Made by a program: the position numbers and the translations under genes
Shown here: positions 1,241-21,235 of the stretch, piece by piece
Position numbering within the stretch: position 1 is the stretch's first letter
How the letters are laid out: each line of letters starts with the position of its first letter
The notes under the pieces: model-generated
The model's input: the letters and a program-made list of their open reading frames with translations, nothing else
Database searches by the model: none
What the model was told of the DNA's origin: nothing
DNA from: Antedon mediterranea
Lineage: Eukaryota; Animalia; Echinodermata
Length of the DNA: 64,000 nt
Direction of reading: 5' to 3'
Assembly (NCBI RefSeq): GCF_964355755.1
Contig: NC_092672.1
Location: 17,125,237-17,189,236, forward strand

Positions 1241-2710
1241 CGTGAAATCATGTTCAGAAACGTCGAGCATTTCGGCGAGCATACGCCGTCCACAGCCTGA
1301 TCGAAAGTAGGGCAGAAGGGGCATCATCATTTCAATGTCCTCAAACGCTCTCTTTGTCCACGGTTTCAGCGGTACGCCGTATTCTTTCATCCAATCGTCG
1401 AGCAGTGAACTGACGATGAAATCTTGCCACGATGCCGAACAATCGCTGACAATCTGCTGTAACATTTTCGCTGGAAGCGCAGACGTTGTTCCGTGGCGTG
1501 CAACGTTGCCGGCGCCTCCCCCTGACACCGGTATTGATCCCAATAGAACGTTTCTGACGAGAACATCGAGAGAGGCGGATGCCTGTTCGAGTCCCGATTG
1601 AGTTTTTACATCCAATCTGGACGCCAACATACTTCTCTCGTCACCAACATCCTCGGTCGTCATAACCGGTAACAAGTGTCGTTCACGTCTTTTATCGAAA
1701 AGAAAACTCTTTCTCAACTTTTCCTTCTCCTTTCTGCATCTGACTAGATCGCCGATAAGTTTCTCTTTTTCGTCTACTGTGCTCGTTTTGTTAACGTCGT
1801 CCAGTAGAGAAGTTGCCATTGGAACGCCCATGGTTCTGGCTTTGATCAGATTCGCTACGGCTGCTCCGGTAACCAAGTCTTCTGTGTTGTTGTTGTTGTT
1901 GTTGTCATCTTCGCCATCATTCATGCCGTTAGATTTTGATTGAATTTTAGGACCGGTCACAATAATGTTCGTGGCCGAATTGCGCACGGCCGCCAAATGA
2001 TATTCGGTCAAGAGACGTACGTTTTCACAGCTGGCGAGCAGATTTTATAGAGCGCTGTGCATTCTACCGTCAACGCCTGGCCGATGAACGACAACGACAC
2101 GCAAACGAGATTGGCTTTTAATCGATCTAGCATACAGATCACCTTCGTCGTCTCTGAATACTAAACATTCGTCCATGTCGACGGCAACCGGACGACCATC
2201 GACACACGTCGTCACCACAAATCCATAGATCCATATACATCGAATGGTGTCGCGTATGAAACGTTCGATGGATTCCTTGTACGTTTGACAAAAGACGGCA
2301 ACTGTACATGAAGTCGGCGATGGTATTTCGACGGTTGTGCACTGCGTTCTAACGATCGCTTCGGCACTAGCACGCATTCCATGTTCAAACATTGATTTTA
2401 CCGAGATGGATGCACACAGTCTATTGAGTATACACATGCACATTGGCAACTGATCGAACGTTCGACGCAATAGTTTGGCGTGCTCTTCGTCGAGTAGATA
2501 AAACGTTTTGTTCTTAAACTCTTCATTGACGGCCGTCATGCATGTTTTGCGTTTTTCAAACACATGTTGTGCATAGTCTTTTGCGTCGAGGAACATGTTA
2601 GCGTCTCGAGTCTCTGAATCAATGGATGCTCTAATGCTGTCAACTGTCTTTTTGGTCACGTTACTATCGACCGTAGTCAGGGGCATTACTTTCCCGCCCA
2701 GAAGATTCAT
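1190..2710 (-). pseudogene. Single ORF of about 506 codons broken by one in-frame TAA (2045-2047); candidate portal protein
   Basis: ORFs 2045-2737 and 1190-2011 share a frame and read ...MHSAL*NLLASCENVRLLTEYHLAAVRNS. The pattern FIRDTIRCIWIYGFVV..DGRPVAV...RDDEGDLY...HSAL resembles the HK97-type portal wing/stem by eye. Disruption is directly seen; the portal call is inference. Confidence 0.5.
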
Positions 2711-2841
2711 TTTGGCCAGAGGTGATGTGATTTCCACCGATTCGATTCACTTTCAAACAATTGACTACTTTGAGTATTCGTTGCCGATAACCACACATTT
2801 CAGAAGCAGCAGCAGCAGCAGCAGCAGCAGCGGTCACAAAA

Positions 2842-3504
2842 ATGTTGATTGATGCTTGGAAAAGATTTACGGATAGTCTGCCTAGTGGACTTGTCGAAAA
2901 GTCAAAGCCTATCTTGATAACGGACGACTTGTGGGGTGCAACGCTGACGGGTGACGGTCGAACAGAGATCGATCTCACGCAATTGTATGCCGTCACCAAA
3001 TCGGCTGGAATTTCAATTAACGTATCCATGCCAAAAAGTACAAACAAGAAAATCAAATATATTTTATATATCGAACCTTCAAAAGAAGAAGAAGAAGAAG
3101 AAGACGATGACGACGATGAGGAGGAGGAGGAGGAGGAGGAAGAGGAGGCGGTGATGGGTGTGAACGGTACTAAAGAATTAGAGATGGCCGAGTGTACGTA
3201 CGAAACGCCAGAAACTATACATTATAAATTCTATGTTCACACTTCTTTCTGGTTACCAGCCATAATCTCAAAGTTACGTAAAAAGTTTGGCGTCAACTTT
3301 CAAAAGTTGATTATTGCACCAAGATTAACGGAGAAAGGTATTGAGCTGTTTGTTGCAGTAAATGTGCGCGAACGACGAACGTCCTCCACCTCCTCCTCCT
3401 CGTCGTCCTTCTCCTCAGCACGACGAGTACGATCGAAATTGATGATTAAGATGATGATAATTGTGTTTGTGGCTGGAATCGGCTTCTTGAAATATCGAAC
3501 ATAG
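2842..3504 (+). CDS. Tail-anchored membrane protein with an acidic tract, function unknown
   Basis: 220 aa; C-terminal hydrophobic helix MMIIVFVAGIGFL followed by KYRT; poly-E/D and poly-S tracts. Confidence 0.6.
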   Translation: MLIDAWKRFTDSLPSGLVEKSKPILITDDLWGATLTGDGRTEIDLTQLYAVTKSAGISINVSMPKSTNKKIKYILYIEPSKEEEEEEDDDDDEEEEEEEEEEAVMGVNGTKELEMAECTYETPETIHYKFYVHTSFWLPAIISKLRKKFGVNFQKLIIAPRLTEKGIELFVAVNVRERRTSSTSSSSSSFSSARRVRSKLMIKMMIIVFVAGIGFLKYRT

Positions 3505-3590
3505 ACATGTATCGATTTTAAAAGCAAATAGACTCGAGAAGTAGACAAAAGAAAGGAAGTTGAAACTGTTTTTTTTATTTTTTTTTTTTT

Positions 3591-4124
3591 TTATTGATAA
3601 ACTTTATTAGAAAGAAAGCAAGTCCACGCCAACCACAGAATAAACGTCATGGCAAGATCATCACGAACACCAGCCGTCTTTCCACTTATCGTGATTTTAC
3701 CGTCGGATTTTACGAGTCTTCTGAAGTTACACAGTTGATCCTGTAAAATGCTCATCTGTCCGTCATCGATGTCTTGTGCAAACACGACTCGATCGTTCTC
3801 CAGCAACATTTGTGACAAATGTACCAGATTTCCTTTGTCTCTTGTCCAAATTCCGACACACCTACGCCCGTCCGTTCGACGTCTCTCCTTTTCGAAAGAT
3901 ATGTCTACTGACGTACCGGCAAAACGATCCGTTACTTGCTTGGCCATGCGAGCGGCGTGTGCGTGCGATGTATTACGTTCTACGTACACACGAACTGGCA
4001 TGAATGTCAACTGATTGTACGTAGCCAAGGTCCTGTTCACCGTGTCTATTATTAGTTGGGCGTGCATGTCCAGTAAAGAATCCATACGATCCATATGTGC
4101 AACGTGGTGTTTCAAAGCAAGTAT
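3591..4124 (-). CDS. TRM3: DNA-packaging terminase ATPase/nuclease subunit, exon 3 (RNase H-like nuclease)
   Basis: Acceptor ttactacgcag|ATA; reads ILALKHH...VRVYVERNTS...ISGKTAGVRDDLAM, matching the herpes UL15C motifs (EH, VEGN, SGK..DDL). Confidence 0.88.
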   Translation of the reverse strand: MLALKHHVAHMDRMDSLLDMHAQLIIDTVNRTLATYNQLTFMPVRVYVERNTSHAHAARMAKQVTDRFAGTSVDISFEKERRRTDGRRCVGIWTRDKGNLVHLSQMLLENDRVVFAQDIDDGQMSILQDQLCNFRRLVKSDGKITISGKTAGVRDDLAMTFILWLAWTCFLSNKVYQ

Positions 4125-4233
4125 CTGCGTAGTAAAATAAAGGTTATTACGATTAATAAATGCTTTTCTTTTCTTTTGTTCGTCTCAACGTATAGTAGGG
4201 AGAGAGAGAGAGAGTGAGAGAGAGAAACTGTAT

Positions 4234-4279
<46 letters not shown>

Positions 4280-4315
4280 AAAAGAAAAGGAAAAAGAGAA
4301 TCAATTGGTAGCGTA

Positions 4316-5209
4316 ATGTTGACGAATGCATTTCATCCCGTGTATTGCAATCTGGAATTTCTACAAGAACGACAAAGAATGTTTTTCGAATGGAAGAGCG
4401 CTATAGACAAGGCGGCTATAACGGACGAGATTAACGCATCCGCATTACCTATTGTCGAAAAGATTGTGAGAACGTGTGGTAGAGAGACAGTGTTGTTGGT
4501 GGAAATGAATGATGCAACCGTACAAGATATGGTCGAACAACGACAAAAACAATCGATTCTGGCTTACACAAGAACGGCAATGATGGCCGCCACGCAATTT
4601 GAATTGGGTCGACAACGAGAGATATCGCAATTGAACACGTTTCTCTTACAGGCAATAGAAATGTTCAATTTGACATTTTTACCAGATGTAGAACGTGAGT
4701 ACAGAGCATCAACGCCAACCGATAAACATTGGATAATAGATAGCATTCGCAATATCATCGTACAGCTGTTGACCAACACGTACGATCAACCAATGTGGCA
4801 TTCCGTCGGATGCGGATCACCGTTGGCCGTGGCCGTTGCAACGATTCGAAATCGAGTACAGAATACCAGTTGTTGTGGTGGTCTGTCTACGATTCGGGCC
4901 GGGCTCCCAGGGCACGCTACGTACGCGCTTCGAAGAATTATGGAGAGCAGAGGCGCCGCGTGCAAAATACCATCCGTTCGACTTACCTGCCTAACGTCCG
5001 ACGTCGTTAACACACCGGCAACCAATCCAATGCCGGACACGTCCGACGGAGTTGGATCGACGCCAATCAACAGACCCGATGAGAAGCCAGATCTTGTGGT
5101 GGATCTTCTTTCGTCTGAAAACAGTTTGGTTAGCAATTTACCGGAAAAAAGTCGCTCGGCGAGTGAAGACGGTGAACAGACGGGAATGCCCATACACTCT
5201 AGTTCATAG
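4316..5209 (+). CDS. Viral protein in terminase intron 2, overlapping exon 2 in antisense; positional analogue of alloherpesvirus ORF70
   Basis: 297 aa from ATG 4316 (the upstream extension in the ORF track is a microsatellite). Position between terminase exons 2 and 3 on the opposite strand. Confidence 0.6.
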   Translation: MLTNAFHPVYCNLEFLQERQRMFFEWKSAIDKAAITDEINASALPIVEKIVRTCGRETVLLVEMNDATVQDMVEQRQKQSILAYTRTAMMAATQFELGRQREISQLNTFLLQAIEMFNLTFLPDVEREYRASTPTDKHWIIDSIRNIIVQLLTNTYDQPMWHSVGCGSPLAVAVATIRNRVQNTSCCGGLSTIRAGLPGHATYALRRIMESRGAACKIPSVRLTCLTSDVVNTPATNPMPDTSDGVGSTPINRPDEKPDLVVDLLSSENSLVSNLPEKSRSASEDGEQTGMPIHSSS

Positions 5210-5553
5210 CTTCCGGTGGCTATGAGGTTCATCATCTGCTGAACGACATTACCGTCGTTTCCATCAATGTGTTCCGGTACCAAATGTCGCCTGTGAGCGC
5301 ACACTGTTCGCGTTCCTTTCTCGAAGCACGCATCGCACAGGTACGACTGAGTAATGTATTTAACCAGTGCACGTCCATCGTGTTTAATATTCACAAACTC
5401 TTGCGACCAGTGATCACTCGAAGTCATCGACGATGTTAAAAGAACCGACACGTTCTTAGGTTGAAAGATTGGCAGAGTTGATAGCATAGCCGTTTGCTTT
5501 ATCCACGGATACTCGTCCATCCATCCCATATCACAACCGGTTCCTCTTGAAGC
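4987..5553 (-). CDS. TRM3: Terminase exon 2 (Walker B, coupling motif, zinc site, first nuclease Asp)
   Basis: Acceptor tttgttttcag|GCT gives ASRGTGCDMGWMDE (Walker B); LLTSS; CDAC..CAH; LLIGVDP; donor CAG|gtaagt at 4986. Confidence 0.9.
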
Positions 5554-5571
5554 CTGAAAACAAAAATAAAG

Positions 5572-6468
5572 ATGACAACAGCTGCTCTGAACGCGTATCT
5601 ACAAGCAAATCGTTTCGACATATATCACGTGGACGAACTTCACGAATGTGTACCGAATAGATGTACGTTCGTGCAACCCATGCAAGACGGTGAGAATTTC
5701 GTGTGCATGTCGTCGCTACGCACGCACACCTGTTCATTGTCGGCAGACTGCGTCATGGAAAATTTAGATCACAACACTCGAAGATGCGCATTGACTGGTA
5801 AAGAATTCTATACAGACGAATATGAACCGATTGTCGTTGGACTCGATACGCCGCTATACGACAACATGCAAGAGGTTAGAAAGATGACAACGACGCGAAA
5901 TAAACACGAAAAAATGTTTCGTTTCGGCACAACCGTACGTCAGGTTCTGGAACGATTGTACGATCGAAAGAAACGATGCAAGTACAACAACGTAAATTTC
6001 TTTGAACACAAGGCCTGTGAAATGATTTTGGAGAACATGGGCAAACAGAACATCGTGTCCGTAATCAGATACACCTTTCTAAAATACGTATCAGCAAACA
6101 GATTACCGGATACAGCGCTTCCAGAGGAAAACATGCTGGACGACGTGGTAGACTTTATTTTCGACGTTATGTCTGTGTTTATGTACTACTCGACGTTACA
6201 ATATTCCAAGAAAGACTTTCTACTCAGCAACGGTCACGAAACGGTCGTGTACTTACTAAAGAGCACGTTGAATGGTATTCGTTCGGCGGAAAGCGTCATT
6301 CTAAAACCACGCTTTCCTCAACTGAAACCCATGCCAGGTGATCGGTTGATGTTTCCGATATTTCAGGTGTCGACCTCTCAACTGACAGCGTGCTCGAGGT
6401 TGTTACAGAGCATGGCGAATGAAAAGATTTGTCGTTATCATTTGGCAAAATTAAATCGAGAATCTTAG
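5572..6468 (+). CDS. UL92/ORF31/VLTF3-like late transcription factor candidate
   Basis: N-terminal HEC..C..FVC....THTC....DC........CALTG resembles the UL92-family C..C..HVC....C....VCALTG motif; helical C-terminus. Confidence 0.6.
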   Translation: MTTAALNAYLQANRFDIYHVDELHECVPNRCTFVQPMQDGENFVCMSSLRTHTCSLSADCVMENLDHNTRRCALTGKEFYTDEYEPIVVGLDTPLYDNMQEVRKMTTTRNKHEKMFRFGTTVRQVLERLYDRKKRCKYNNVNFFEHKACEMILENMGKQNIVSVIRYTFLKYVSANRLPDTALPEENMLDDVVDFIFDVMSVFMYYSTLQYSKKDFLLSNGHETVVYLLKSTLNGIRSAESVILKPRFPQLKPMPGDRLMFPIFQVSTSQLTACSRLLQSMANEKICRYHLAKLNRES

Positions 6469-6736
6469 TACGTTTTCGTTTGTGTTTTTTCTTCTTGATT
6501 ACGTTTTCTTTCTTCAACAACGATTTTGATGATGATGATGATTGTGTCGTTGTTGTTGTTGTTGTTGTTGGTGGTGGTGTTGATGATGATGAATTTACAG
6601 TTGATGTGGTCATGTACCAGAAATTACGTTGAATTAGTTCATCGGCCGATCGACGCCATGACATTTTCTCGTTCTTCTTCTTCTTCTTCTTCTTCACACG
6701 ACGTACGTATATGCGCAACATGTCATTAATGACATA

Positions 6737-9700
6737 ATGGTAAATTCGAAGACAATCATCATCATCATCATGTATACATCATCACAGACCGAAACGTTGA
6801 TGGACACGACGGCTGTTAGACAGAGGCCGACAAAGAGAAAAGGACGGGACGATAATAAAGAGGTTGGCAAACAGTCGAAAAAAATGACGCCGTATCTTGG
6901 ACGAGTTCTCGACGAACTCGCAGACCCGACGCTCACAACAACGACGCTCATGAGAATGGTATCGACTGCTTACAGATCCGGCTACCCTCCAGATGGATCC
7001 ATGCTGGGTCTAAAAGCGCAGCTACTTCGAATGGACGGCTTTTCAAAACAGTTTTCAAACGCGTTCGTTTCTGGTCGCATAGTTGTTGTCGACGCAAAGA
7101 ATCTTAAAAGCTTGTACGAAAGTCTGTGTGAAATAATCAAAATGATTGAAATCATCACAGAAATCAACAAACATGCTGACATGAAAGAGAGAACGCGTAA
7201 ATTGTGCGACAGTTTGTTTCTCGGCGGTAGCTTTCTAAATTCGAAACAAGTTCGGGTCTCAATCGTCATCAAAGACGGTAATCTAATACAACAAAAGATA
7301 CACTTTGCAAAACATCTCAAGACAATGACTGCCGTTCCAGGTATACATTCACAGTCGCCTGTAATAGGCGGTGGCGGCGCAGGAAAAGAGAAATCGTTTC
7401 TACAGCTGGGAAAGTTTCAGGCCGGCAATAGACTGACAATGAAAGATTTTTTTCTGAAACACTACACATCTACGCAAGGTAACAATTCCAGCGATCGTGA
7501 TGCTCTCTTCAACGAAACCGGATTAAGTAAAGATGATTTCGAGAGATTGTTGAAAGCGTGTACGCACATTCAAAACGTGGAAATCGGAACCACGTTTCGA
7601 TTGATGAAATACGTGTGCGCGCTGTTCGACAAAAGACCGAATCTGTACATGATTTTCGCTTGCCTCGTACTACATCGCATAGTTCATCACATCGGCGATG
7701 CTACACTGCTCGCCAGAGCCGACATGTGGAATCTCGTGTTGGGACAGAGTGAAGAGATCACAAACAGTTGGAACTTTGAAAGAATCGACGCGGAAATCAC
7801 GGCAGCTGAGAGTAAATGGAACGCGGCACATGCTCCGTGGTTGACCGTTGACTCGGCGGAACGTCCCACCGTCGAATGGATCAGAAAGTTGGCAAAAAAG
7901 ATACAAGAGGACTTTGCGCCATACGAAAGAAATGCTTTGGACATTGACTTTGACCATTTGTTTGGTGCGCTCGTGTCGTACATTAAAAAACACGAATTTC
8001 TCAAGATTCGTCTAAGAGATCATGCACTCGTTACTGGAACGATCGACGAACTTAAACCGTTTCAATGTGAACGACCTCCGTTCGGAACGCCCACTGCACA
8101 AGATGACATGCCATGGAGAGACTGTTGCCATTACGAGGCGAACGTATGTGCTATTCTACTCAACGCTCTTTGCAATATACCGGTTAGATCTCCTGAATCA
8201 ACGCGCAAGATTTCACTCGACACGGCCACCGAAGGCATGGCAATGGTCGAACAAAGTCGGTTCGAAATAACGCAACTCAGTTACCAACATCTGCTAAGTT
8301 TGGAGGCTAAAGCGCGTGAACGTGCCGCCAACATCACTACTACCGATTCTGAATCTCGTATGCCGGTGATGAACACAGAATCTGCTGATAATATGTCGGT
8401 GGTGCAGCAGCAGGTGAACACCGAAACTGTTGACGACGACGACGAGGCGCGTACTACAAACGCATCAGATACGCTTTCTGTTCTCGAACCTCTGGTCATC
8501 ATGGAAGGTATGCCGGCAAATACCACCCAAGACACACTACTTTCTGTGCTTGAATCTGGTACGACGCCGGCGGTGATGAACACCGAAACTGCTGACGCGC
8601 TTACTACTCACACCGATGATGCAATTTCTGTGCTCGAATCTATTGACATAGCAAGCATGCCGGCAAACACCACCCAAGACACACTTTCTGTGCTCGAATC
8701 GGGTACGACGCCGGCGGTGATGAACACCGAAACGCGTACACACACCGATGATACAATTTCTGTGCTCGAATCTATTGCCATAGCAAGCATGCCGGTGAAC
8801 ACCGCAATTGTACACGAAGAAGAAGAAGAAGAAGAAGAAGAAGAAGAAAAAGAAGGTGACGGTGATGATGATTTACCTAGCATCGGTCAACTGCTCGCTC
8901 CTTACGTGAACACGGCCAACAGCATCTTACCTTCAACAAACGACGATTTGCCCATCTTGGACGAAGACACCGTTCAAAGATTGCGTGAAATCTCGGACGA
9001 TGTGAACGCTCACAATAGTACAATGCACGTAAAACTCTACGATATTGAAGATTGGATATCATCTCAGCCCGATTCTAATGCCGAATCCCAATCGCAGATT
9101 GAAGTCATGCAATGGACAAAGGCAAAAGCCGAAGAAGAACGACGGACGGCTTTGAACACGCTCGAGACTCAACGAGTAGAACACGAAGAGTTCAAGAAGA
9201 CCATGGCCACCAGGAATGCAGAGTCGACGAGAGAAAATGAAAAAAAGACGCGAGTGAGCGACGCAAAAATTAAAGAGTTGGAAACGAAACTGGACAAGAC
9301 CGAAGGCGAACTGCGAAACAGTAAACGTTTGGTGGACGAAATGAAGCAACAACTTCACGACACCGAAATGCAAAATGTCGACGAGTCAGACACTCTAAAA
9401 GCCTTGCTTAACAAAAAGACGGACGAAGCACGTGCACATGAATTGATTTTGAAGCGCAAGCAATCCGAATTGATATCGTCAAAAGAACACGTTGACGAGC
9501 AGACGAGTCGTCGCATCGAAGCGCTCACAAACGAAGTTGGTGAATTGCGCGTGCTGAACAGAAGATTGGACACGGCCAACACGCTTTCGGAGACAACGTA
9601 CAGGCAGCGAATTCAACAGTTGGAAACTGATTTGCAAACGTACGAAGAAAAGAGCAGATTGTATCAGTCGAGCGTACAAAAAAATGAACAGTTGATGAGC

Positions 9701-11803
9701 CGACATGTTGACGATTTGGCGTCGCAACTTGATGCCGAAAAAATAAACTCTGCTTCGTTAAAACATGATGCAGAGAACATGTTAAAATCTCGAGAGCAGG
9801 CGTATTTGACCGATCTGAGAAAATTGAACAATGAGCTGCAAAACGAGAAGAAAAACGTACAGAAACTCGGTCGTGACTTGCAACAGACCACCGATTCGGC
9901 GCATCTGCAAAGAGAACAACTCAACAATAAACTGATGAACGCAAACACGACGTTCACCATCAAGCTGGACGAAATGAGAAGGGAGATTGAAGAACAGGAC
10001 AAGAGGCAAAACTCGGTTCAACACGAAAAGAATCTAGATACGGTTCAACACGAAAAGAATCTAGATGATTTGAAACAAACTCTTGTCGAGACCGAACAGA
10101 AGGTAGCGCAACTGAAACGAGATGGCGACGAAAAAATAGATGAATGGAAGAAACGTGTTGAAGAAGTGAAGATGGAGCGTGACAAAGCAGCTCAACATCG
10201 TGTCCTGTTGGAAAGACAGGTTCGAGAGTTGACGAGCAAAGCTGCAGAGGACAATTTCACTCGAAAACGTTTAGAAGAGCGACTGAAAAAGTCAATCGAG
10301 ACACACGCCGAGTACGTGTCGGAAGCTAAACAGAGCACGAAGAAAGAGACTGAAAAGAAGATGCTCGACATGTTGACACAGGCCGAGAAACAGCACACGC
10401 GGGAACGTGACGAGGAACGTGATCGACTCGAAAAACAACTGAAATCTGAAGTAACTAAACTAGGACAAAAACACGACGCAGAGATGAAACGTGTCGCGAA
10501 AGAACACAGCACTGCTATACAGCGACAGTTGACGTCGGCAGCGAACGCGTCGAGCAATCACAAAACAGAATTGAAGTCGACAATACGTGATCTAGAAGAA
10601 GCGCGAAAAGCTCGTGACTCGTTGTGTACGCAAAACGCTAAACTTCAAGAGAAGTTTACTGCCAAGGAAAAAAGTTTAGCTGAAACACATCGGTTATCCG
10701 ACGACAAGAATAAAGAAATATCCTCTCTTGCCGCTCAGGTAATTATTTTAAAAAATCACAGCTTGACTGCACAAAAGCGCATCGAAAGTCTCGAAAAGGA
10801 ATTGGAACATTCGCAGCGAAAAGTATCCGAATCCTATCTGAAACTGTCTGAATTCATAAAGAATCAAAGCGACGGAGGCGGTGGAGGAGGAGGAGATGGT
10901 GGATCTGATGTGTTACATGAAAGAATGAAAGATATCGAAGCGTCATTGGAGCAAGAAAAGCGCCAAAATCTATATAAAGATGGACAGATTGCACATTTGA
11001 AGTCTGATGTTAAATTTTTAACTAGTAAAGTTGAAACTGCAAACAGCGAACGAGAACGACAGGTTGCAAACTTACAACGGAAACTTTTCAATAAAAAACG
11101 TACGTCGCATTCGTTATATACGTTACATCATGATGAAGATGAAGAGGATAAAGTGGAGGAGGAAGAGATATACGATGAAGCTGAGTACAATCATGACTAT
11201 TACGGTGATGAACATGATGATGATAATGAGCATAATGGTGGCAATGAGGATGATGATGAATACAAAATACAATTTGTTGTCGATTACAGTCCAAGTAATA
11301 CGTCCTATCATCAGTTATTCGGAACCGGAGAGTTTACTTTCAACGAAGTGATTAATCAAGCAAGACATTACATCAATTCCACCGATGATGAAGATGTATC
11401 AACAGTAGAAGCAGCAGCAAAATTGACCGACAGATGTGGCTCGACATATTTTGCGCCTATGGTCGTACGCAAAGGCAATGTAACCGAAGGCGATAGAACT
11501 GTAATGAAAGTGATTTCGTTCATGGGAAAAATACCGGGCGTGACATTGGTAAAACCGAGTCAAAGTAGCGTTCCTATTTGTTTTCTTGCGTCAGACAATT
11601 CGTGCAAGTATCGCCGTAGAGGTGATGCACGATACGTAATTTTTGGCAAGGATATGCGTATAGATTGGTCGGAGAAAGATTGGTATGTACAATTGGTCGG
11701 ACGTATTCTCGAAAACAATCTTAGACACAATCCAAAGGTAATCACTGCAGCACCATGTTTGACCCAACAGACGATCCAGTTACCAGCTCCGATAACTTTC
11801 TAA
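6737..11803 (+). CDS. Large coiled-coil protein (tegument-like), 1688 aa
   Basis: Long intact ORF; E/K/Q/L-rich heptad region at about aa 790-1450; internal repeats; acidic tracts; inside terminase intron 1. Confidence 0.75.
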   Translation: MVNSKTIIIIIMYTSSQTETLMDTTAVRQRPTKRKGRDDNKEVGKQSKKMTPYLGRVLDELADPTLTTTTLMRMVSTAYRSGYPPDGSMLGLKAQLLRMDGFSKQFSNAFVSGRIVVVDAKNLKSLYESLCEIIKMIEIITEINKHADMKERTRKLCDSLFLGGSFLNSKQVRVSIVIKDGNLIQQKIHFAKHLKTMTAVPGIHSQSPVIGGGGAGKEKSFLQLGKFQAGNRLTMKDFFLKHYTSTQGNNSSDRDALFNETGLSKDDFERLLKACTHIQNVEIGTTFRLMKYVCALFDKRPNLYMIFACLVLHRIVHHIGDATLLARADMWNLVLGQSEEITNSWNFERIDAEITAAESKWNAAHAPWLTVDSAERPTVEWIRKLAKKIQEDFAPYERNALDIDFDHLFGALVSYIKKHEFLKIRLRDHALVTGTIDELKPFQCERPPFGTPTAQDDMPWRDCCHYEANVCAILLNALCNIPVRSPESTRKISLDTATEGMAMVEQSRFEITQLSYQHLLSLEAKARERAANITTTDSESRMPVMNTESADNMSVVQQQVNTETVDDDDEARTTNASDTLSVLEPLVIMEGMPANTTQDTLLSVLESGTTPAVMNTETADALTTHTDDAISVLESIDIASMPANTTQDTLSVLESGTTPAVMNTETRTHTDDTISVLESIAIASMPVNTAIVHEEEEEEEEEEEKEGDGDDDLPSIGQLLAPYVNTANSILPSTNDDLPILDEDTVQRLREISDDVNAHNSTMHVKLYDIEDWISSQPDSNAESQSQIEVMQWTKAKAEEERRTALNTLETQRVEHEEFKKTMATRNAESTRENEKKTRVSDAKIKELETKLDKTEGELRNSKRLVDEMKQQLHDTEMQNVDESDTLKALLNKKTDEARAHELILKRKQSELISSKEHVDEQTSRRIEALTNEVGELRVLNRRLDTANTLSETTYRQRIQQLETDLQTYEEKSRLYQSSVQKNEQLMSRHVDDLASQLDAEKINSASLKHDAENMLKSREQAYLTDLRKLNNELQNEKKNVQKLGRDLQQTTDSAHLQREQLNNKLMNANTTFTIKLDEMRREIEEQDKRQNSVQHEKNLDTVQHEKNLDDLKQTLVETEQKVAQLKRDGDEKIDEWKKRVEEVKMERDKAAQHRVLLERQVRELTSKAAEDNFTRKRLEERLKKSIETHAEYVSEAKQSTKKETEKKMLDMLTQAEKQHTRERDEERDRLEKQLKSEVTKLGQKHDAEMKRVAKEHSTAIQRQLTSAANASSNHKTELKSTIRDLEEARKARDSLCTQNAKLQEKFTAKEKSLAETHRLSDDKNKEISSLAAQVIILKNHSLTAQKRIESLEKELEHSQRKVSESYLKLSEFIKNQSDGGGGGGGDGGSDVLHERMKDIEASLEQEKRQNLYKDGQIAHLKSDVKFLTSKVETANSERERQVANLQRKLFNKKRTSHSLYTLHHDEDEEDKVEEEEIYDEAEYNHDYYGDEHDDDNEHNGGNEDDDEYKIQFVVDYSPSNTSYHQLFGTGEFTFNEVINQARHYINSTDDEDVSTVEAAAKLTDRCGSTYFAPMVVRKGNVTEGDRTVMKVISFMGKIPGVTLVKPSQSSVPICFLASDNSCKYRRRGDARYVIFGKDMRIDWSEKDWYVQLVGRILENNLRHNPKVITAAPCLTQQTIQLPAPITF
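8368..8810 (+). repeat. In-frame internal repeats in the 1688-aa protein
   Basis: MPANTTQDTL(L)SVLESGTTPAVMNTET occurs twice, and SVLE(S/P) five times. Confidence 0.85.
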
Positions 11804-11913
11804 TCCTAATCAATCTTCTCTTGACCAATCTAATAGCGAATACTCGTCGACATGAGCAGAAGAAGGAGAAGAAGGAAGAGGAGAGACAACTGATTACCTC
11901 CATATTTTAGATT

Positions 11914-12506
11914 ATGTCGTTTGATTTATGGAAAAGTTTAGAGTCACGCGTTGAACGTAGATGGATAGAATGGTCTCATCATCATCATCATCATCATCAC
12001 GACGACGACGACGAAGAAGAAGAAGAAGACAACGCTTACTTGAAAGAATTGTTGAAGGAATTCAAAGGAAATTTGGAGAGTATATGTACCAAAAAAGGCG
12101 ATGAACAAGATGTTCTCTATTACGCACGATGCATTGCGCTCATCGAACGTCTCTTGTTCGACACAACCACGATAACGTCCGAGTGTTGTACAATGGCCGA
12201 CATGGACAGTATATTGAAACGCAATGTTCTCTTTGCCTGGACCAATGTGCACTCTTTCAAAATTCTCGAAAGATTATCAACAATTTGGAGATTTGTGACT
12301 GTAATGGGAACCGTACCGGCAATGCCGATCGGATGCTGTCCCATTGTCGGCTACAAATGTTTTTGGTGTAGAATTAAAGATGAAAACCTTACAGATGAGT
12401 GTCATCATCTTGTCACTACCGTATTCAGCGAAACAACAGAACAAACAGCAAAAAAAGAAGAGACATCACTCGTTGTATTTCCACTTCCAGCATCATCATC
12501 ACCGCC

Positions 12507-12559
<53 letters not shown>

Positions 12560-13401
12560 TATCAACATCAAATTATTACGATGAGTTTGGTTTTGCCAAA
12601 CGCATCGATAAACGAGTCAAGAATGCCGTTGAAAAACTTAGAATTGAAATCGAGAAAGAAATTCGATATGTAGAATCGTGCGTTAGCTATACGTTGTTGC
12701 CAAAAACAATTAGTCTCGAGTGTACGGCATCGATTGCAAAACTGTTGTGTTTTGCCGAACGCCGTCGGTGCATGGCGTCCAAGCAGTACGCGTGTTTCGA
12801 GCATTGTAATCTTGATGTTTGGAGTAGAAACCTGCTCGAGTGTATGTTGGCGAATCCGGACAGACACGATGAACGCAGAGCGGCAACGTGTACATTTTTT
12901 CGTCTCGTTGTCGATCCAAGTACGGTGGTCGATCCGGCAATCATTGGACACGAAACGGCGTTCAGGAAATGGATGGAGGCGTGTGACGTGGACGTGGAAA
13001 GAGTCTGTGACTACGTGAATGGATTGAAAAAAATGACACCGACAACAGAAATAAATAAAAATGATCAAGTTACAAGCATGTACAAATGTTTATTAATTTG
13101 GCACATGTTCTCGTCCATGCCCGTATCGGGAGGTGGTCCGTTAACGATCCATCGATGCGATCTTGACGGAATGCCAAGCGCAGACGGACTTTGTTTTCTT
13201 TACGATGACAGACGTTTTCTTGTTAAACGCGCTGATCGTGTACTCAATTTCACCTATGAACGTGCTGTAGAGTCATGCGTGGCCTGGATACGGTACGGTA
13301 CGCTATCGATGAATTCACCCACTGTGAGGCGTGTACTGTTCCATACTGGCTTCGATGACGATCGACATGATATCCCCAAACATGATGGCCAGACGCGATG
13401 A
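11914..13401 (+). CDS. Hypothetical Cys-rich viral protein, 495 aa
   Basis: Long intact ORF with the same codon style as its neighbours; in-frame poly-H/D/E/P/S tracts. Confidence 0.65.
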
Positions 13402-13716
13402 CATTTGCGACACGATAATGTTCTGCACTCTGTAATCGATTCCCATCATTACCGTCATGCGAAGTAAAGTCTCTGTCATGAACATGAGTCTACCCCGGCC
13501 ACCGCCGTAGTAACTCGAATAGTATCTGATGAGAGGATATTTCAGTCCACTGTAGAACGTTATGGCAAACAGAATTATATTGGACGTCAACAGTTGCTTG
13601 TAGCTTATCTTCTCCTTATCGTACGTATTCCCTTGCCAGTTGTATTTCGACGTAAGACTGTACAGAACAACGACGAATATCGTAAAAGTCACTATTAACG
13701 GCGCAAATGGTTTCAT
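13315..13716 (-). CDS. Small membrane protein
   Basis: 133 aa from an ATG; two or three hydrophobic segments; divergent from the Snf7-like gene. Confidence 0.45.
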   Translation of the reverse strand: MKPFAPLIVTFTIFVVVLYSLTSKYNWQGNTYDKEKISYKQLLTSNIILFAITFYSGLKYPLIRYYSSYYGGGRGRLMFMTETLLRMTVMMGIDYRVQNIIVSQMSSRLAIMFGDIMSIVIEASMEQYTPHSG

Positions 13717-13753
13717 TGTGCGCTATACTGCCTTATTGCATCAGCACGCAAAC

Positions 13754-14326
13754 ATGTTTGGTAAAAGAAAAAGAAGAGGCGAAGCCATTGAACAAAAACG
13801 AGTAGAATCTATGCGCAACATTGCCGCCATGCAACACACATTCGACGAAAAGACGATGCAAATGCAAGAAAGTATACAGTCAGGTTTGAAGAATGGAATT
13901 GATGCGAAAATGCTGTCGTCGTTGATCAGACGAAAGTCGAATTATGAACGAATGTTGACCACGTCTCAGAACGCCATGTTAAAGTTGGAGAAAGATGCAC
14001 TTTCGTCTAAATTACGAACGTTTGACAGGCTGCAATACGATCGACTCAAGGAGGAAGATTACTCTCTCAGAAAATCAGAGAAGAGCATGAATCCCAATAG
14101 GATATGTTCACTTTTAGGAAGCGTTAACAACAGACGACTTAGACACAATACTGCAATGGATTCAATTCGAGGATTGTTGGACGATGATGATGATGATGAT
14201 AGCAGCGATGAGGACGAATTGAATGATGATGACAATACATTGGCACGTGAGCTCGTCGACCGAGAGATTTGTAATAAACTTGTCAACTTGCCCGAACCAC
14301 CTAATCGCTCAAAAGTACCTTCTTGA
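13754..14326 (+). CDS. Snf7/CHMP4-like ESCRT-III protein
   Basis: 190 aa; basic N-half and acidic C-half; MFGKRK start, LIRRKSNYERML...LKLE, SMNPNRICSLL, DEDEL..LAREL and a C-terminal LPEPP, colinear with the Snf7 family pattern. Confidence 0.65.
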   Translation: MFGKRKRRGEAIEQKRVESMRNIAAMQHTFDEKTMQMQESIQSGLKNGIDAKMLSSLIRRKSNYERMLTTSQNAMLKLEKDALSSKLRTFDRLQYDRLKEEDYSLRKSEKSMNPNRICSLLGSVNNRRLRHNTAMDSIRGLLDDDDDDDSSDEDELNDDDNTLARELVDREICNKLVNLPEPPNRSKVPS

Positions 14327-14347
14327 TAATAATAAAAAAAAAAATAT

Positions 14348-15451
14348 CTAAAGAACAAATTTGTCTTCTTCTTCTTCTTCTTCTTCTTCTTCTTGTATAC
14401 GTTTACACGTTACGCACATTGTTCGAGAAGTTATCTCACTGCAAGTAGGGCACGAACGCATCATTGCCAAATCGGGCTGTTTAACTGTCAATCGTACACC
14501 GGCACCGTCCAACGACAGAGAAGCCAATCTTCTCGAATGACAGTTGTAACAGGTGGGTAAGAGAGAATTCTCGTCGATATACATCCCTTTTGTCGGTGGC
14601 CTGTTCTTCAGATCTACGTAAGTTAAAATTATATAACAGTAGCGACAAAAAACAATCGATTCTGATCCAAATGCCGCTGGATTGTGATCGTAAAAGAATT
14701 CTATCTGAGAGCATCGTTTCTGAACAAACATTATGCTCTTCATCTCGGATAGTTCATCTTTGCTTAATAACGACAGCGCTTGAGTTATGAGCGAAACAGA
14801 GTATTTCTCATTGCGCGTTTTGTTTAAAAGTAGAACGCATTCTACCAGTGCATTTGATCGATTCGGTATGGCAAACATTAGATTGAACGGCCAACTGGAC
14901 TTTGTAAACTCCAAAATTGTTTTCATCATCGGATGCAACGGTTTTCTTTTCACATGATTCAATTGGAACAGAATGCATTTGAGAATGGCCGAATCGTGTA
15001 TTCTGTCGGTTAAGGGCACCACAAATGATGACCGTTTTCGCGTCTGGTGGTGGTGGTGGTGGTGGTGGTGGTTGTTGCGTCGGCGACGACGATCAGCTTG
15101 CATCCATTGCATTAACTCATCAAAATTTGTTATGTAGGCAGCAATGTGTCTGTGATACGGCCGAGCGAGTGTATCGAGAAAATAGTAGACGAACGCCGTT
15201 TTGGGCGTCATGCTATCATCATCATCATCACCACCACCACCACCGATAGATACGGCCGCATCGAAATGACGTCGCTGTTGCTCGTTGCATCGTTCCAGTT
15301 TATTTTTGTACGATGTTTTCGATGCTGTGCCAATGCAGGCGCCTATCAAATTGACAAGTTTCACGTGATGGCTGGTGGTGATGATGGACGTGTTTTTGAA
15401 AATGTACGTTAAACCGGCAAGGAACGTTGGATAGGCCTCGGAGCGACTCAT
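14348..15451 (-). CDS. Zinc-binding protein, UL49/ORF66/VLTF2-like candidate
   Basis: 367 aa; four C-terminal CxxC pairs (CRYC, CYNCHS..L..L.L, CPTC, CVTC); sits in terminase intron 1 on the same strand. Family call is tentative. Confidence 0.5.
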   Translation of the reverse strand: MSRSEAYPTFLAGLTYIFKNTSIITTSHHVKLVNLIGACIGTASKTSYKNKLERCNEQQRRHFDAAVSIGGGGGDDDDDSMTPKTAFVYYFLDTLARPYHRHIAAYITNFDELMQWMQADRRRRRNNHHHHHHHHQTRKRSSFVVPLTDRIHDSAILKCILFQLNHVKRKPLHPMMKTILEFTKSSWPFNLMFAIPNRSNALVECVLLLNKTRNEKYSVSLITQALSLLSKDELSEMKSIMFVQKRCSQIEFFYDHNPAAFGSESIVFCRYCYIILTYVDLKNRPPTKGMYIDENSLLPTCYNCHSRRLASLSLDGAGVRLTVKQPDLAMMRSCPTCSEITSRTMCVTCKRIQEEEEEEEEEDKFVL

Positions 15452-15483
15452 GATGCAAAAAAAATAAAAACAACAATACTCAC

Positions 15484-16179
15484 GTTTGCCGTGTTTGCTT
15501 TGCTTCTAAAGTTTGCCGTCGTGCCCGTAGACTGCAACACTTGTACTCCATCCGGAACACCTTTGAACGTGAACGCGTATCGTCGTTGAGCCATCTCCAA
15601 TAGACGAATGACGTCTTCTCGATTGGTACGCGCGCAGTTCAAATCCTGAGCCCAGTTAACGACGGATATACTATTTTCGTGTACAAGAAGAGATGCCACC
15701 ACAAGTTGACCGGCGCGATTCTTGCCGCTACGTCGAGGCACTCTGACAACCGTAAACTTTCTATTGAATTCGTCTATCTTTCTAGCGGCAGAATGTCGTA
15801 CGGCCGGATGCCATCGAGCCGGTTCGGTCATCGACTGTGCCTCCTCGTCGGACAGTACGCCGAGTATGCAAAGTGATGGAATTCTCAGCTTCGACGCTCG
15901 ATCTCCAAACACTTTGTTGAATCGTCCAGCTATGACAGCGTTACACATTTCCTTCTGAAACGGCTCTAATCGTATGTTACTTTGGCGACACAGAAACTCT
16001 AGAGTTGACTTGACGTTGCTTACGAACGTTAGACATTTTTTGTCCATGTCCGCCGTTGCTGCATTATTGTCGGCAACGCATTCACTCAACGGTTTCAGGA
16101 CGCATAATCCAAACGAATGGCGCTTTCGTTCTTCTATTCTATTGCATATGGTACGCATTTGTCGCTGGTGGGAAATCAT
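15484..16179 (-). CDS. TRM3: Terminase exon 1 (adenine-binding Q motif, Walker A)
   Basis: RLEPFQKE and VVRVPRRSGKN (herpes PRRHGKT); ends ANTAN|gtgagt, a phase-0 donor at 15483. Spliced product is 598 aa from ATG 16179. Confidence 0.9.
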
Positions 16180-16280
16180 CTTCTCTTCCTCTTTTTTTTT
16201 TTCCACGTGGATCACGTCAATGCACGAAAAGAAAAAAGTTATTAACGTTTAAACGACATGTCTTTAACAATTAACAAACG

Positions 16281-17586
16281 ATGATGATGATGTTGTTGTT
16301 TATGTTTCTATTTTTTTTAAATTGCGATGGCAAGGTGATACGTCACGGAAAGCCATACGGTCAACTTGCGAACGGTAACAGAACGCTGATATGTTCAAGC
16401 GAGAGTATGTTTAACATAGAACGAAACGGAGAGTTTGCGTGTCCAAACTCGGAGGGAGAATACGAGGTGCTGGACATGATAACAACCGACAGACAAAGTA
16501 ACGTTACCGTTTTATTTGACGATGAGTCGACGTTCAACGTGGACCTTAACACTAGACTGGAATTTGATTTGTCTGCAAACAAAAGCAAGGTCGACTATCG
16601 ACAGCAGATGTCTGCGTCGTTTTACATTAAATTGAACGAATCGAGAGATGGGCAAATTCTGTACAGCAACAGTGACAAAGATTACATGTTTATACGAATT
16701 TTGGACAGTCGACTGGCTGCCACATTTGATCTTGGCTCGAAACCGTTGACGGTGGTGAGTCGAGAGAACGTTTTAGTTGGAAAATGGTATCATTTCACCG
16801 TTAAACGAGTTGGATCGTGGGCCAGAATCGTAACAAACGGTCTGTTCGGACCTTGGTCGAGTGTACACGGAAACTACACTCGCCTCGACACAAACAATCT
16901 GTACGGCATAGGTGCGTCCGACACGTTCCCATCGGTGAGCGCGTGTCTCGCTTTGTTCCAGTTCAACGGTAAACGCCTCTTACCGCAGAATCTGAAGACG
17001 TGCAAAGTAACTGAGCATCAGCAGCAGCAACGAGAACGTGGCGCTACTGCAACGCAATCTGTTAGCAGGGCAAATTTACTAAAGGGTGAACGTGCATTTC
17101 ACTTATCTTACGCCGTTTCTACTACTTTTCAATGGCCTAGTGACGTCGACTATCAGGACAGAGTGTTCTTATCGTTTTACATAAAACTAAACAAAGACGC
17201 CGATGGACAGATTCTGTACAGCAGTGGCAACGAGGATTATATGTTTTTGGGTATCGTCGACGGTCGATTGAACGCTACATTTAACATGGGTTCTGGATCG
17301 CTGACAGTTGTCAGCGATCATGTGCTCGTTGTCGAAAATTGGTATCATTTCGACGTTTCCAGAATCGGTAATCAGGCTAGAATTGATTCGGATTTCAACG
17401 TCGGTGGCTGGACAAAGCTGAACGATACGATGGGCGGTACCAGCCTCGATTTGAACGGTACATTTCATTTGGGCAGTACCAATAGAACACAGTCGATAAC
17501 CGGTTGCATAGCATCCTTTCAGTTTAATGGATGGTTACTGCAACCCAACACGGTTACAGACTGCACATTCAACAAAAATGATGATG

Positions 17587-17617
<31 letters not shown>

Positions 17618-19481
17618 AAACGCACGGGCAACGACAGCAGATCATACGGTTTCATTGATCGGCGATTGGAAGATGAAGTTGACGAACGATTCTTGTTATG
17701 CATTCGATATCGATCCGTACGACCTGTACACGTTCAATGAAACGGTGAACGTAAAATTCTTGTTGAAACTCACGAAAAAAGAAGACGGACAAATCATGTA
17801 TTCCAACGTGGTGAACAACGCCGAAGCGTTCGGACCGTCCGTCTTGATAGAAGACGGCCATTTAGTCGTAGAGTTGCGTAGCCGCGGCTCTTCGGCAACA
17901 GCAAAGTCGAAAACGGCTCGACTTAGCAGCATCGAAAAACTTGCGATACGAGAATGGTACCAGGTGTTGATAAAACGGAAAGGAAATCAAGTGTACTTGT
18001 CGTTGAATACGGCCTTTGACGAATGGGCACAAGTGACGAAAAGGTTTACGCCCAACGATGTGGTGACAACGCTTAAGGTGGGCGCAAGTGATACTTTAAA
18101 GTCGATTGTAGGTACAGTGACAATGTTGAAAGTAAACAATCTTCAATTACAACCGAGTATAGCCGAAACGTGTACACACGATGATGATGTCGTCGACGAG
18201 GATACGTTCATGACGACACCGTCTGCACCGCCACTCGAGTCTGCATTCAGAATTGACTTGAAAAAGAAATCTTGTCGTTCCTTCACCGTTCCCACTTTGA
18301 ATCGTATAGAAAACACAATGGTCATCGAATTCTACATTAAACTGGATACGGTGGACGAAAAACGACAAATACTACTGTATGAATACAGTGCCGACGTACG
18401 AATGTCAATTGTTGTCGTACCGGGAGGACGATTGAAGTTCAGTTTTGTGTCTTTGTCGCGTATGACTGTCATCAAAAACATCGGACGAATGACGCAGGGT
18501 ACTTGGTATCAATACACTCTCGAATTGGTCATGGGGTTTGTACGCTTGTCTTCAAACTCGAAGGTGGTTAGTCGATGGCAACGGCTACCGTCTGAATTTA
18601 AGTCCCCTTACCGACAGGATGGTGTGTTTATAATTGGCGCAAACAATCGTTTACCGTCGATCGATGGAACTATCGCCGATTTCACCATCAACGGATGGAC
18701 GATGGATTCTTTGAATCTTCGCACTGATTGCAACGACGGCCCGGCCGTCGTTGACAAAATTGAGCCAGAGAATATGATTTTACGCGACGTAGACACCAGG
18801 ATAGACTATCAATTATGGTACGAACCGTCGTCATTGAAAAGTTTCTTTTTGAATCAAACAGACTGCGTCAAGCTTACAACACCGCCGTTGATGATCGATA
18901 AAGCGTCAGTCTCTTTTTACTTTATATCGCTAAGAAATTCCGGCAACATTTTAAGCTATCAGAGTGATACGACAAATTTTAACGCGCGACTCGTTGACAA
19001 TTATCTACACGTTATATTCAAATCACCTTCCGGCCTTCGTGTTCAGATTATAAGCACGCAACAGTACATCACGAATACATGGGCGTATGTTGAAGTTTAC
19101 AGAAATAGACTGTACGTTCGATGTAAGTTCTCCGGTTACATACAAGAAGAAAAGTTACCCACCGACGAGTTCAACACCGTTTCAACTACAAAGAATGCGA
19201 CTACAGTGATTGTCGGAAAGGTAGACGAAGAAAGTAATTCTATAACCGGTGTCATAGCCGCTCTGTACATAAACAAGGCATTATACAAAGTGCAGGATGC
19301 TTATTCGTGCATCATCGACATACCTACCACCACCACCACCACTACAGCAGCAGCAGCAACGAATACCTCTATACACTCGTCTGACCAACTGCGTGGTGCG
19401 TCATCCACCTCCTCCTCCGGTTATAACATTTCATCGAAAATATTATGTTTATCTCTGTTGTTGTTGTTCATATTTCAATAA
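16281..19481 (+). CDS. Secreted, probably GPI-anchored protein with about five laminin-G domains
   Basis: Signal peptide; repeated SFYIKL..DGQILYS..DYMF..I.DGRL.ATF..GS...WYHF...R.G..A...G.S....GC motifs; Thr/Ser stalk and a hydrophobic C-terminal tail with no cytoplasmic domain; intronless. Confidence 0.85.
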
Positions 19482-19582
19482 TAAATATTATGTACAATAT
19501 AATATCTCTCATCGTCGTCGTCATTACTTGCAATGATAACATAGAAACACCAATTTTTTAAACTTTTTTTTTTATTACTATA

Positions 19583-20268
19583 CTACCAACATCGTGATCC
19601 GCCATAGGCAATAATGGCGATAGTTATATACATATCGTTCAACAAATCTCCAATTGAGCCTATCAAATTTACGTTATTTTCTGATATGAAATCTAGATGT
19701 TCCAACTCGATAAAGAGCTCAAACGAATTGTTTATCCGTTTTATGTGTTTTCTTGGCATGTAGCTTTTCAGAAGATTCTTCAATTCATTCACTTGCTCTT
19801 TATCAATATTTGAAGCAATATCAACAAGCATACGTCTAGATGAAAATAGATAAAATAATAATAATAAGATTCTGCTGACCATATTAAAAAAACAAACAAA
19901 AAACAAAAGAAAAAAAAAACCAAATATCAATATTAAACTTACCTATACCGTGAGATGATAGGCATCGCTTTTTTCTGCAAGTATCGTTCTACTCTACACG
20001 CCATTTCAATCTCGCCTATATTACCCAGCAGTTCTTCGAGTAAGTTTAAGTTCATTTTTGATACTTTCTTCATGCCTTCAAGACGAGAAACTAATTCAAT
20101 GAATGAAGAGATTTCATCAAATTCTTCATAGCGAAGACCGATCGTTTTATCGAGACATAAGTATTTGAGTTTACAGACATCAGTTTTTGTCAGTGCACTG
20201 TCTAGTTCGACAATCAATTTGCTATAGGTTGCGTCAGTAAATGTCTTGCTATCGTTACCTGCACCCAT
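19583..20268 (-). CDS. vFLIP: vFLIP-like tandem death-effector-domain protein, two exons (20268-19943, 19835-19583), 192 aa
   Basis: DED1 YSKLIVELDSALTKTDVCKLKYLCLD...LLEELL; donor AG|gtaagt and acceptor catctag|A join ISRYR-RMLVDIAS in frame; DED2 ELKNLL..FELFIELEHLDFISENNV; no caspase domain. Confidence 0.85.
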
Positions 20269-20769: not shown

Positions 20770-21235
20770 ATATTATATGATAATTGTTTTATTCCTTTCC
20801 AATTTTTTCGAGAAAAGATGTATCCCATTTTCTCCATCACACTAAACAGCTCAATTGAATTCTCAAAAAAATTCTGCTGTTGGTAATTCGCCTTTTAGAA
20901 ACCGCTTTAAAATATTCATGTCACTCTCTCCCATTTCAGATGCAATATGAATTGTCATACGTCTGTGGGGTAAACGAGAAAGATTTTTTTTTTGTAAGGT
21001 GAGACGTAATCTGTTGTTGTTGCATACTGTTTTATTTTAGCAGCCATACACCCATGTCCTATCAACTCAAATAGTTCTATAAGCAATCCTAGCTTCTTTT
21101 TTTTTGTTACAACAAATCTCGTTTCTAAAGTCTGTAAAATATATCGTTTGCCTTTTTCATATTCTCCAATTCTCCACGATGTAGACCGATATCTGGACAT
21201 ACAAGAATCATTGCTGAACTTGAGCGGATGCAAAC
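20770..21235 (-). pseudogene. Degenerate second vFLIP/tandem-DED paralogue
   Basis: LETRFVVTKKKKLGLLIELFELIGHGCMAAKIKQY...VSPY, then acceptor cacag|A and RMTIHIASEMGESDMNILKRFLKG..NSIELFSVMEKMGYI; frameshifted and the donor is lost. Confidence 0.7.

Follow-up and report, generated by a model that had tools for sequence, protein, structure and literature searches.

A predicted herpes-type terminase gene in three parts, with gene-filled introns, in a probably deep-branching herpes-like virus from Antedon mediterranea DNA

Background

The genes for herpes-type terminases, which are DNA-packaging motors, differ between virus families in whether and where they are interrupted. In orthoherpesviruses (UL15/UL89/ORF29) a single intron holds nested antisense genes, which in the beta/gamma layout are UL91-UL94. 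For alloherpesviruses three terminase exons are stated, a layout known since the catfish virus (available text of PMC3230846 and PMC13595911). In the Malacoherpesviridae the oyster-virus terminase (OsHV-1 ORF109) is a single 874-amino acid (aa) open reading frame (ORF) spanning both intron sites, and the abalone and amphioxus virus terminases are also unspliced (PMC2994540). Finally, the terminases of mirusviruses, whose hosts are protists, are split near the Walker B motif, some of them at the alloherpesvirus site, and the pieces are often joined in trans (PMC12768974; statements on mirusviruses here and below refer to the available part of that paper). The gene considered here lies at positions 3591-16179 of a 64,000-nucleotide stretch of DNA from Antedon mediterranea (contig NC_092672.1, positions 17,125,237 to 17,189,236 of the forward strand; "the window", to which coordinates refer), where the minus strand carries a predicted herpes-type terminase in three exons.

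This locus resembles the terminase genes of IcHV1 (ORF62/69/71) and the ranid herpesviruses most closely in layout, since both intron positions are equal to the codon and phase, and a small intron 2 with one antisense gene is combined with a large, gene-filled intron 1. However, identity to the catfish and ranid proteins over exons 2-3 is 17-20%, the lineage falls outside their family in trees, the intron-2 genes have no detectable homology, and the Walker A (GKN) and Walker B (GWMDE) motifs of the window are unusual. With orthoherpesviruses the gene shares the intron-1 codon and antisense nested genes, and, as in the beta/gamma layout, a UL92 homologue adjoins exon 2 in the same orientation. 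Unlike orthoherpesviruses, it has a second intron, and its intron 1 is 9.9 kb rather than 3.0-4.7 kb. As with the Malacoherpesviridae and the amphioxus virus, a herpes-type terminase occurs in what is probably an invertebrate host, although the gene here is predicted to be spliced. The likeness to mirusviruses lies in a break near Walker B, as in their split terminases with MING-1 introns, and in an intron that carries a gene and occupies a single fixed position in the nuclease region (PMC12768974).

In the reading favored here, to which a probability of roughly 0.75 is assigned, the gene is the terminase of a deep-branching herpes-like virus, likely integrated, and its three pieces are joined in cis by the host spliceosome. 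Splicing would remove both introns from a ~12.6-kb pre-mRNA, leaving two phase-0 junctions and one predicted 598-aa DNA-packaging motor. Both sites would likely go back to an ancestor that predates the divergence of the ortho-, allo-, and malacoherpesviruses; orthoherpesviruses and cyprinid-type alloherpesviruses would later have lost intron 2, and the oyster virus would have lost both. What likely preserves the introns is that their clean removal would also delete needed nested genes: in intron 1, among others, the gene for a UL92-like late transcription factor, and in intron 2, a conserved antisense gene. Since the layout has been known from the catfish virus onward, the three-exon, gene-filled architecture is itself not new, but the deep lineage that carries it here is poorly described. 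Added here are a lineage outside the three families that has both sites, the wide spread of the second site, and the synteny of UL92.

The terminase gene and its junctions

The exons (232, 189, and 177 codons) are separated by gaps of 9,930 and 862 bp, all in phase 0 (Table 1). An initial annotation, made from the letters of the window alone, had described exact GT-AG, phase-0 junctions after ANTAN and between SDVRQ and ILALKHH, and introns of these two sizes; the sequence reads precisely so. A pyrimidine tract precedes each acceptor, the donors are GTGAGT (intron 1) and GTAAGT (intron 2), in-frame stops lie directly beyond every exon, and AATAAA occurs three times at the end of exon 3 (3608-3579). 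Over 3591-16179 the minus strand contains five GTRAGT sequences and 13 strong acceptors; because these are few, and two of each lie exactly on the homology boundaries, chance does not account for the junction signals.

Table 1. Features of the terminase locus (window coordinates; a slash marks an exon/intron boundary)
Feature	Position	Strand	Details
Terminase exon 1	16179-15484	-	696 nt, 232 aa; C-terminal end ANTAN; donor AAC/gtgagt; adenine-binding LEPFQ (Q motif), Walker A VPRRSGKN
Intron 1	5554-15483	-	9,930 bp, GT-AG; acceptor tttttgttttcag/GCT
Terminase exon 2	5553-4987	-	567 nt, 189 aa; start ASRGTGCDMGWMDE, end SDVRQ; donor CAG/gtaagt; Walker B GWMDE, coupling motif LLTSS, Cys/His motif, first nuclease Asp IGVDP
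Intron 2	4125-4986	-	862 bp, GT-AG; acceptor ttttactacgcag/ATA; after strand 3 of the RNase H fold
Terminase exon 3	4124-3591	-	534 nt, 177 aa plus stop; starts ILALKHH; nuclease Glu VERN, last Asp RDDLA
Antisense intron-2 gene	4316-5209	+	297 aa; 223 nt run over exon 2
UL92-like gene	5572-6468	+	Intron 1, antisense; 298 aa, N-terminal Cys/His motif; starts 19 nt from exon-2 acceptor
Low-complexity ORF	6296-6721	-	Intron 1; 141 aa; unsupported
Coiled-coil protein	6737-11803	+	Intron 1; 1,688 aa; weak homologue at same place in L041
ORF	11914-13401	+	Intron 1; 495 aa; L041 counterpart, blastp E 2e-4
ORF	13315-13716	-	Intron 1; 133 aa; unsupported
ORF	13754-14326	+	Intron 1; 190 aa; positional counterpart only, L041:916-1533 (-)
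ORF	14348-15451	-	Intron 1, same strand as terminase; 367 aa; starts 32 nt into intron 1; Cys-rich C-terminus, CxxC repeats

In keeping with the three-exon model of the initial annotation, the predicted 598-aa protein of the joined exons has the terminase motifs in order. The Q motif, Walker A, Walker B, and the coupling motif follow in order across exons 1 and 2 in alignment with ortho- and alloherpesvirus proteins, and the D-E-D triad of the RNase H-like nuclease (IGVDP, VERN, RDDLA) is in line with the HSV/CMV-type and alloherpesvirus residues. Exon 1 can be aligned end to end with 12 orthoherpesvirus exon-1 ends. In Pfam, exon 1 matches DNA_pack_N (E 0.01) and exon 3 matches DNA_pack_C (E 0.0012), each under the cut-off; exon 3 of the relatives L040 and L041 scores above it. 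The nearest named family to exon 2 in the ESM Atlas is Terminase_6N (0.96), a likeness to T4-type terminases by language-model features, and a profile of exon 2 retrieves 116 representatives, among them named cyprinid, sturgeon, and tiger-shark herpesvirus terminases. No terminase was retrieved from the PDB in sequence searches with each exon and with an alignment (A1), viral contigs gave no match to exon 2 or A1, and a weak search found no longer relatives of exon 2. On these sequence features, the three-part gene is classed as a herpes-type (UL15 family) terminase ATPase/nuclease.

The junctions recur in relatives. In five exon-2 relatives (48-76% identity) similarity stops at xVS, and in the three of these that reach the start, it begins at Q/ASRG; the two are what reading through a GTRAGT donor and a CAG acceptor, respectively, produces. 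The exon-1 relative P0012 (72%) ends TAN/VS. Two metagenome loci, L040 and L041 (~50% protein identity), keep the exon-2 acceptor, the GTAAGT donor of intron 2, and the intron-2 acceptor; their second introns are 676 and 634 bp, and exon 3 starts AG/ILALD and AG/VLAMD, respectively. At ~98% identity, much of the region is also present in DNA runs from two other samples. Over 2000-19900, runs X5 and X7 also contain a second, more divergent relative in patches beside the ~98% copy.

Intron sites across herpesviruses and beyond

Intron 1 of the window is in register with that of other herpesviruses, with 14 residues to the Walker B Glu and with the end of exon 1 level with the orthoherpesvirus exons. 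At the orthoherpesvirus loci, the donor follows [HYF]N[TK][NH] in 36 of 39 cases and lies 3.0-4.7 kb before the acceptor; the acceptor itself is present in 39 of 39 by construction, because the search pattern included AG. The alloherpesvirus loci were retrieved by a pattern lacking the acceptor, and all ten show YAG, with a pyrimidine tract, two codons upstream of RGQ; a Walker A pattern did not locate exon 1 of these loci within 10 kb. The initial claim that the position of intron 1 is common to very distant lineages is thus correct, the codon being the same in orthoherpesviruses and in all ten alloherpesvirus loci. This sharing is largely known, and its extension to mirusviruses is already in print (PMC12768974).

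Intron 2, when aligned with IcHV1-type genes in the same way, falls at the same codon in three of the ten alloherpesvirus loci: L042, which is the catfish virus, and L043 and L046, which we take to be frog viruses. Their phase-0 introns are 729, 725, and 681 bp, their third exons begin VVALE, VVCLD, and VFGLD in register with ILALK, and each intron contains one antisense ORF, which in L043 and L046 overlaps exon 2. In the window, L040, L041, and these three loci, exon 3 begins three residues before L-[D/E/K], and this register holds also in an alignment made without any junction marker. The three cyprinid-type loci (L045, L049, and L051) read through the site without intron 2. L048 halts at the site, where the search pattern gave no acceptor; L044 and L050 are incomplete in this region; and L047 breaks earlier, at a different site.

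The second site extends well beyond these families. The first nuclease Asp (D) is recognizable in 108 of the 116 exon-2 profile matches (in two, the motif was wrongly picked). Sixty-three of the 108 end within 130 aa, with hh/V[SRC] in 45, and 41 of these 63 truncated terminase ORFs break at D+23 to D+29, the window donor being at D+24. A V followed by S, R, or C at the break would be the read-through of a GT donor. The truncated matches, mostly unnamed, are presumed to be mirusviruses from their place in the tree and from PMC12768974. Because the site is found in many such mirusvirus-like terminases, it is not special to alloherpesviruses. The initial suggestion that intron 2 may link this virus to the alloherpesviruses is consequently not sustained: the site is widespread elsewhere, it is absent from the three cyprinid-type loci, and trees place the lineage outside that family.

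Placement of the lineage

A tree of the exon-2 region was made from 119 rows, excluding one repeat protein and matches that cover <120 profile positions. In this tree nine sequences form a clade (99) outside the ortho- plus alloherpesviruses (95) and inside a 43-row group (Shimodaira-Hasegawa-like approximate likelihood ratio test, SH-aLRT, 97). In a 49-row tree of exons 2-3 that includes the oyster virus, the clade (100) lies outside the allo-, ortho-, and malacoherpesviruses together (SH-aLRT 91), within the group at 98. The terminase therefore falls with herpesviruses (SH-aLRT 97-98), apart from the mirusvirus-like rows; it nests in neither the Alloherpesviridae nor the Orthoherpesviridae and does not group with OsHV-1 ORF109. 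The approximately unbiased (AU) test rejects a grouping of the clade with the alloherpesviruses (p=0.0275) and with the malacoherpesviruses (p=0.00094), and identity over exons 2-3 is no higher to the former (17-20%) than to orthoherpesviruses (18-20%). These results provide moderate evidence that the lineage would lie outside all three families.

Additional unnamed groups (P0015-P0023, P0030, and P0032) in the herpes-side branch have the same exon-2 end, one of them on a 197-kb contig, and may represent further undescribed lineages. The literature searched, in which most subscription papers were not covered, contained no paper on the terminase structure of this lineage. Deep-branching integrated herpes-like elements of invertebrates, placed by DNA polymerase, resemble it by description as given in the available text, and may be this lineage.

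Genes nested in the introns

The initial annotation had counted at least seven ORFs, on both strands, in the introns. Of ATG ORFs of at least 100 aa, intron 1 contains seven, distributed over both strands, and intron 2 contains the start of one antisense ORF. Only four of these eight have sequence support from relatives, those beginning at 4316, 5572, and 6737 (tblastn) and at 11914 (blastp).

The product of 5572-6468 matches Pfam Herpes_UL92 weakly (E 4.8e-4), its L040 homologue lies above the cut-off (E 3.7e-8), and the gene is at the same place in L040 and L041. A comparison by hhalign of the three-sequence profile with eight beta/gamma UL92s gives a probability of 84% (E 7.7e-6) over 45 columns, which comprise the Cys/His region only. 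UL92 is a late transcription factor. In the listed beta/gamma loci, UL92 is antisense and starts no more than 1.4 kb from exon 2, whereas two alpha loci carry other genes there; the RCMV R91-R94 layout agrees with this position (available text of PMC3079670). Homologues of UL91, UL16, and UL17 were not detected by a Pfam scan of the window ORFs. Five alloherpesvirus loci also have a Cys/His gene beside exon 2 (for example, L042:9056-10012), with a C-C-C-H-H-C-C pattern like that of UL92. For this ORF68-type gene as a UL92 homologue, the hhalign result is not significant, and the reciprocal hidden Markov model searches, in which it ranks top among 505 (E 0.053) and among 333 (E 0.27), are suggestive only. 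No paper joining UL92, VLTF3, and herpesvirus was found in the same partly covered literature.

L040 and L041 each have a homologue of the antisense intron-2 gene in the corresponding position (24-27%, E 1e-11 and 2e-10), and because the gene is kept in both, it is considered real. The first ~215 aa are predicted, with low confidence, to be all-helical. Foldseek found no match to two poor models (predicted local distance difference test, pLDDT, 38 and 42), the Atlas contained no match, and profile comparison with four alloherpesvirus intron-2 ORFs detected no homology. By position, the gene is the counterpart of alloherpesvirus ORF70-type genes and possibly of MING-1. In mirusviruses, one supplementary row lists a 441-nt gene antisense inside the terminase span, presumably MING-1 (PMC12768974); its product would be ~147 aa, as against 209-297 aa in this lineage. 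Within intron 2, (TA)n and (TC)n microsatellites lie at 4190-4290, just upstream of the start of the antisense gene.

Among the other nested ORFs, the 190-aa product of 13754-14326 is basic, then acidic, and helical, and ends LPEPP; a reading by eye as ESCRT-III/Snf7 was dropped, as Pfam, PDB, and blastp gave it no support. The Cys-rich end of 14348-15451 is reminiscent of UL49/VLTF2-type late factors, a likeness unconfirmed by any Pfam match; if it were of this type, intron 1 would hold a second late-transcription gene. Intron 1 of the relative L041 also contains an otubain-like peptidase ORF (L041:8226-8978, plus strand; E 8.5e-4).

Evidence against the proposed cis splicing at ancestral sites, and other explanations

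Several observations weigh against the favored reading. No RNA run was listed as containing the sequence, and a search of sequencing runs for spliced joints found no spliced read or contig; because no RNA junction was found, we infer splicing from the DNA. Run X8, guessed to be RNA, gave short, low-depth pieces without a spliced joint, and its even cover of non-coding repeats indicates that it is probably DNA, which says nothing on expression. Three AATAAA sequences lie on the terminase strand within intron 1, one of them ~220 nt behind same-strand ORFs, so that a full pre-mRNA needs read-through. Both L040 and L041 lack exon 1, no relative has exons 1 and 2 on one contig, and L041 passes into AT-rich non-coding DNA (L041:1-915) inside intron 1. 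Walker A is GKN rather than GK[T/S], but since P0012 also has GKN, this is probably a trait of the lineage. For the distant matches, the intron-2 site was judged from protein ends rather than DNA, and the control is imperfect in that nine of 45 long matches also fit the pattern, although several of these can be seen to read through. The trees come from quick searches on one gene with long branches, and the evidence for placement is therefore only moderate. Lastly, in culture a UL15 cDNA that lacks the intron can stand in for the HSV-1 gene; this speaks against a necessary regulatory role for splicing but is compatible with introns locked in by their genes.

It is unlikely, though worth stating, that exon 1 and exons 2-3 are transcribed apart and joined by trans-splicing, as in mirusviruses and, supposedly, frog herpesviruses. 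Trans-splicing near Walker B is confirmed in mirusviruses (PMC12768974), ranid viruses have exon 1 on the opposite strand (available text of PMC3230846), and the window has same-strand ORFs and AATAAA inside an intron 1 that is two to three times the orthoherpesvirus length. However, the exons are colinear, in order, and on one strand, and no AATAAA outside coding sequence lies directly behind the exon-1 donor. That the copy is decayed or misassembled and never spliced is barely credible: the element carries a 7-kb insertion, with host repeats further right, and no spliced RNA was found, yet all three exons are open with their catalytic residues, independent relatives retain the same boundaries, and the DNA of two other samples matches much of the region at ~98%.

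The ancestry of the sites can also be explained otherwise. It is quite unlikely that introns were gained independently at favored positions separating structural elements, or that they moved among co-infecting nuclear viruses by homing or recombination. Such convergence would fit the mirusvirus trans-splicing sites, which differ by clade and match alloherpesviruses only in some cases, the existence of homing introns (PMC12768974), the different break in L047, and nested genes that mostly differ between families; it fits poorly with two sites that agree to the codon and phase and with a UL92-like gene in the same place and orientation as in beta/gammaherpesviruses. Alternatively, the virus could be a divergent relative of the alloherpesviruses, with intron 2 and its antisense gene as a shared derived trait. 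The identical codon, the similar size (681-729 bp in three alloherpesvirus loci and 634-862 bp here), the antisense gene in each intron 2, with overlap of exon 2 in L043 and L046 too, and the Cys/His gene adjoining exon 2 in five alloherpesvirus loci all point this way. This kinship is nevertheless very unlikely, given that the site is widespread outside herpesviruses, that the AU test (p=0.0275) disfavors the grouping, that identity is no closer than to orthoherpesviruses, and that no homology is detectable among the intron-2 ORFs. Cis splicing at two inherited sites remains the preferred explanation.

Probable integration and surroundings

The virus is likely integrated in an animal genome. 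Of the element, which in an alloherpesvirus would include twelve conserved core genes, the window spans just a part. The window is AT-rich to the right of 28 kb, very-high-depth repeats lie at ~34.7-36.5 kb, and satellite arrays extend over 43-64 kb; between 43128 and 56140 these have units of 143-297 bp with many repeated 119-aa ORFs, which are likely host DNA. A segment of ~7 kb (27994-35021) is missing from a run-X7 contig of another sample and is likely an insertion into this copy. Teratorn-like elements join a piggyBac transposase to an alloherpesvirus genome; a general Pfam scan of 36 window ORFs found no transposase family, and no Teratorn sequence was compared.

Oriented divergently from exon 1, 16281-19481 (plus strand) encodes 1,066 aa with several laminin G domains (E 2.5e-33) as well as a signal peptide and a hydrophobic end. 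On the minus strand, 19583-20268, 20955-21200, and 41430-41762 include two ORFs whose death effector domains score above the Pfam cut-off, what may be a fragment of a third, and an ORF weakly similar to Bcl-2; by sequence these would likely be anti-apoptotic cargo. The laminin G, death-effector, and Bcl-2-like genes indicate an animal host. At 1190-2710 (minus strand), two ORFs (244 and 221 aa) each correspond to one half of a single 495-aa L041 ORF and are probably another spliced or split gene.

Implications

Why the packaging-motor gene of every orthoherpesvirus retains an intron full of other genes is a long-standing question. Intron positions belong to the rare characters that remain recognizable after sequence similarity has faded, here to <20% identity. 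If the favored reading is true, the ancestral herpesvirus terminase gene had two introns, the one-intron gene of the human herpesviruses and the oyster-virus gene without introns are derived states, and late transcription of the UL92 type predates the beta/gammaherpesviruses.

A more speculative extension, possible but doubtful, is that this lineage is a fourth, earliest-branching family of animal herpesviruses (nine exon-2 sequences plus at least two unnamed sister groups) that has kept the ancestral terminase locus intact, with a UL92-type gene in intron 1 and an intron-2 antisense gene that is the common ancestor of alloherpesvirus ORF70 and mirusvirus MING-1. Were this so, both introns locked by their genes, as well as late transcription driven by UL92, would be older than the divergence of herpesviruses and nuclear mirusviruses.

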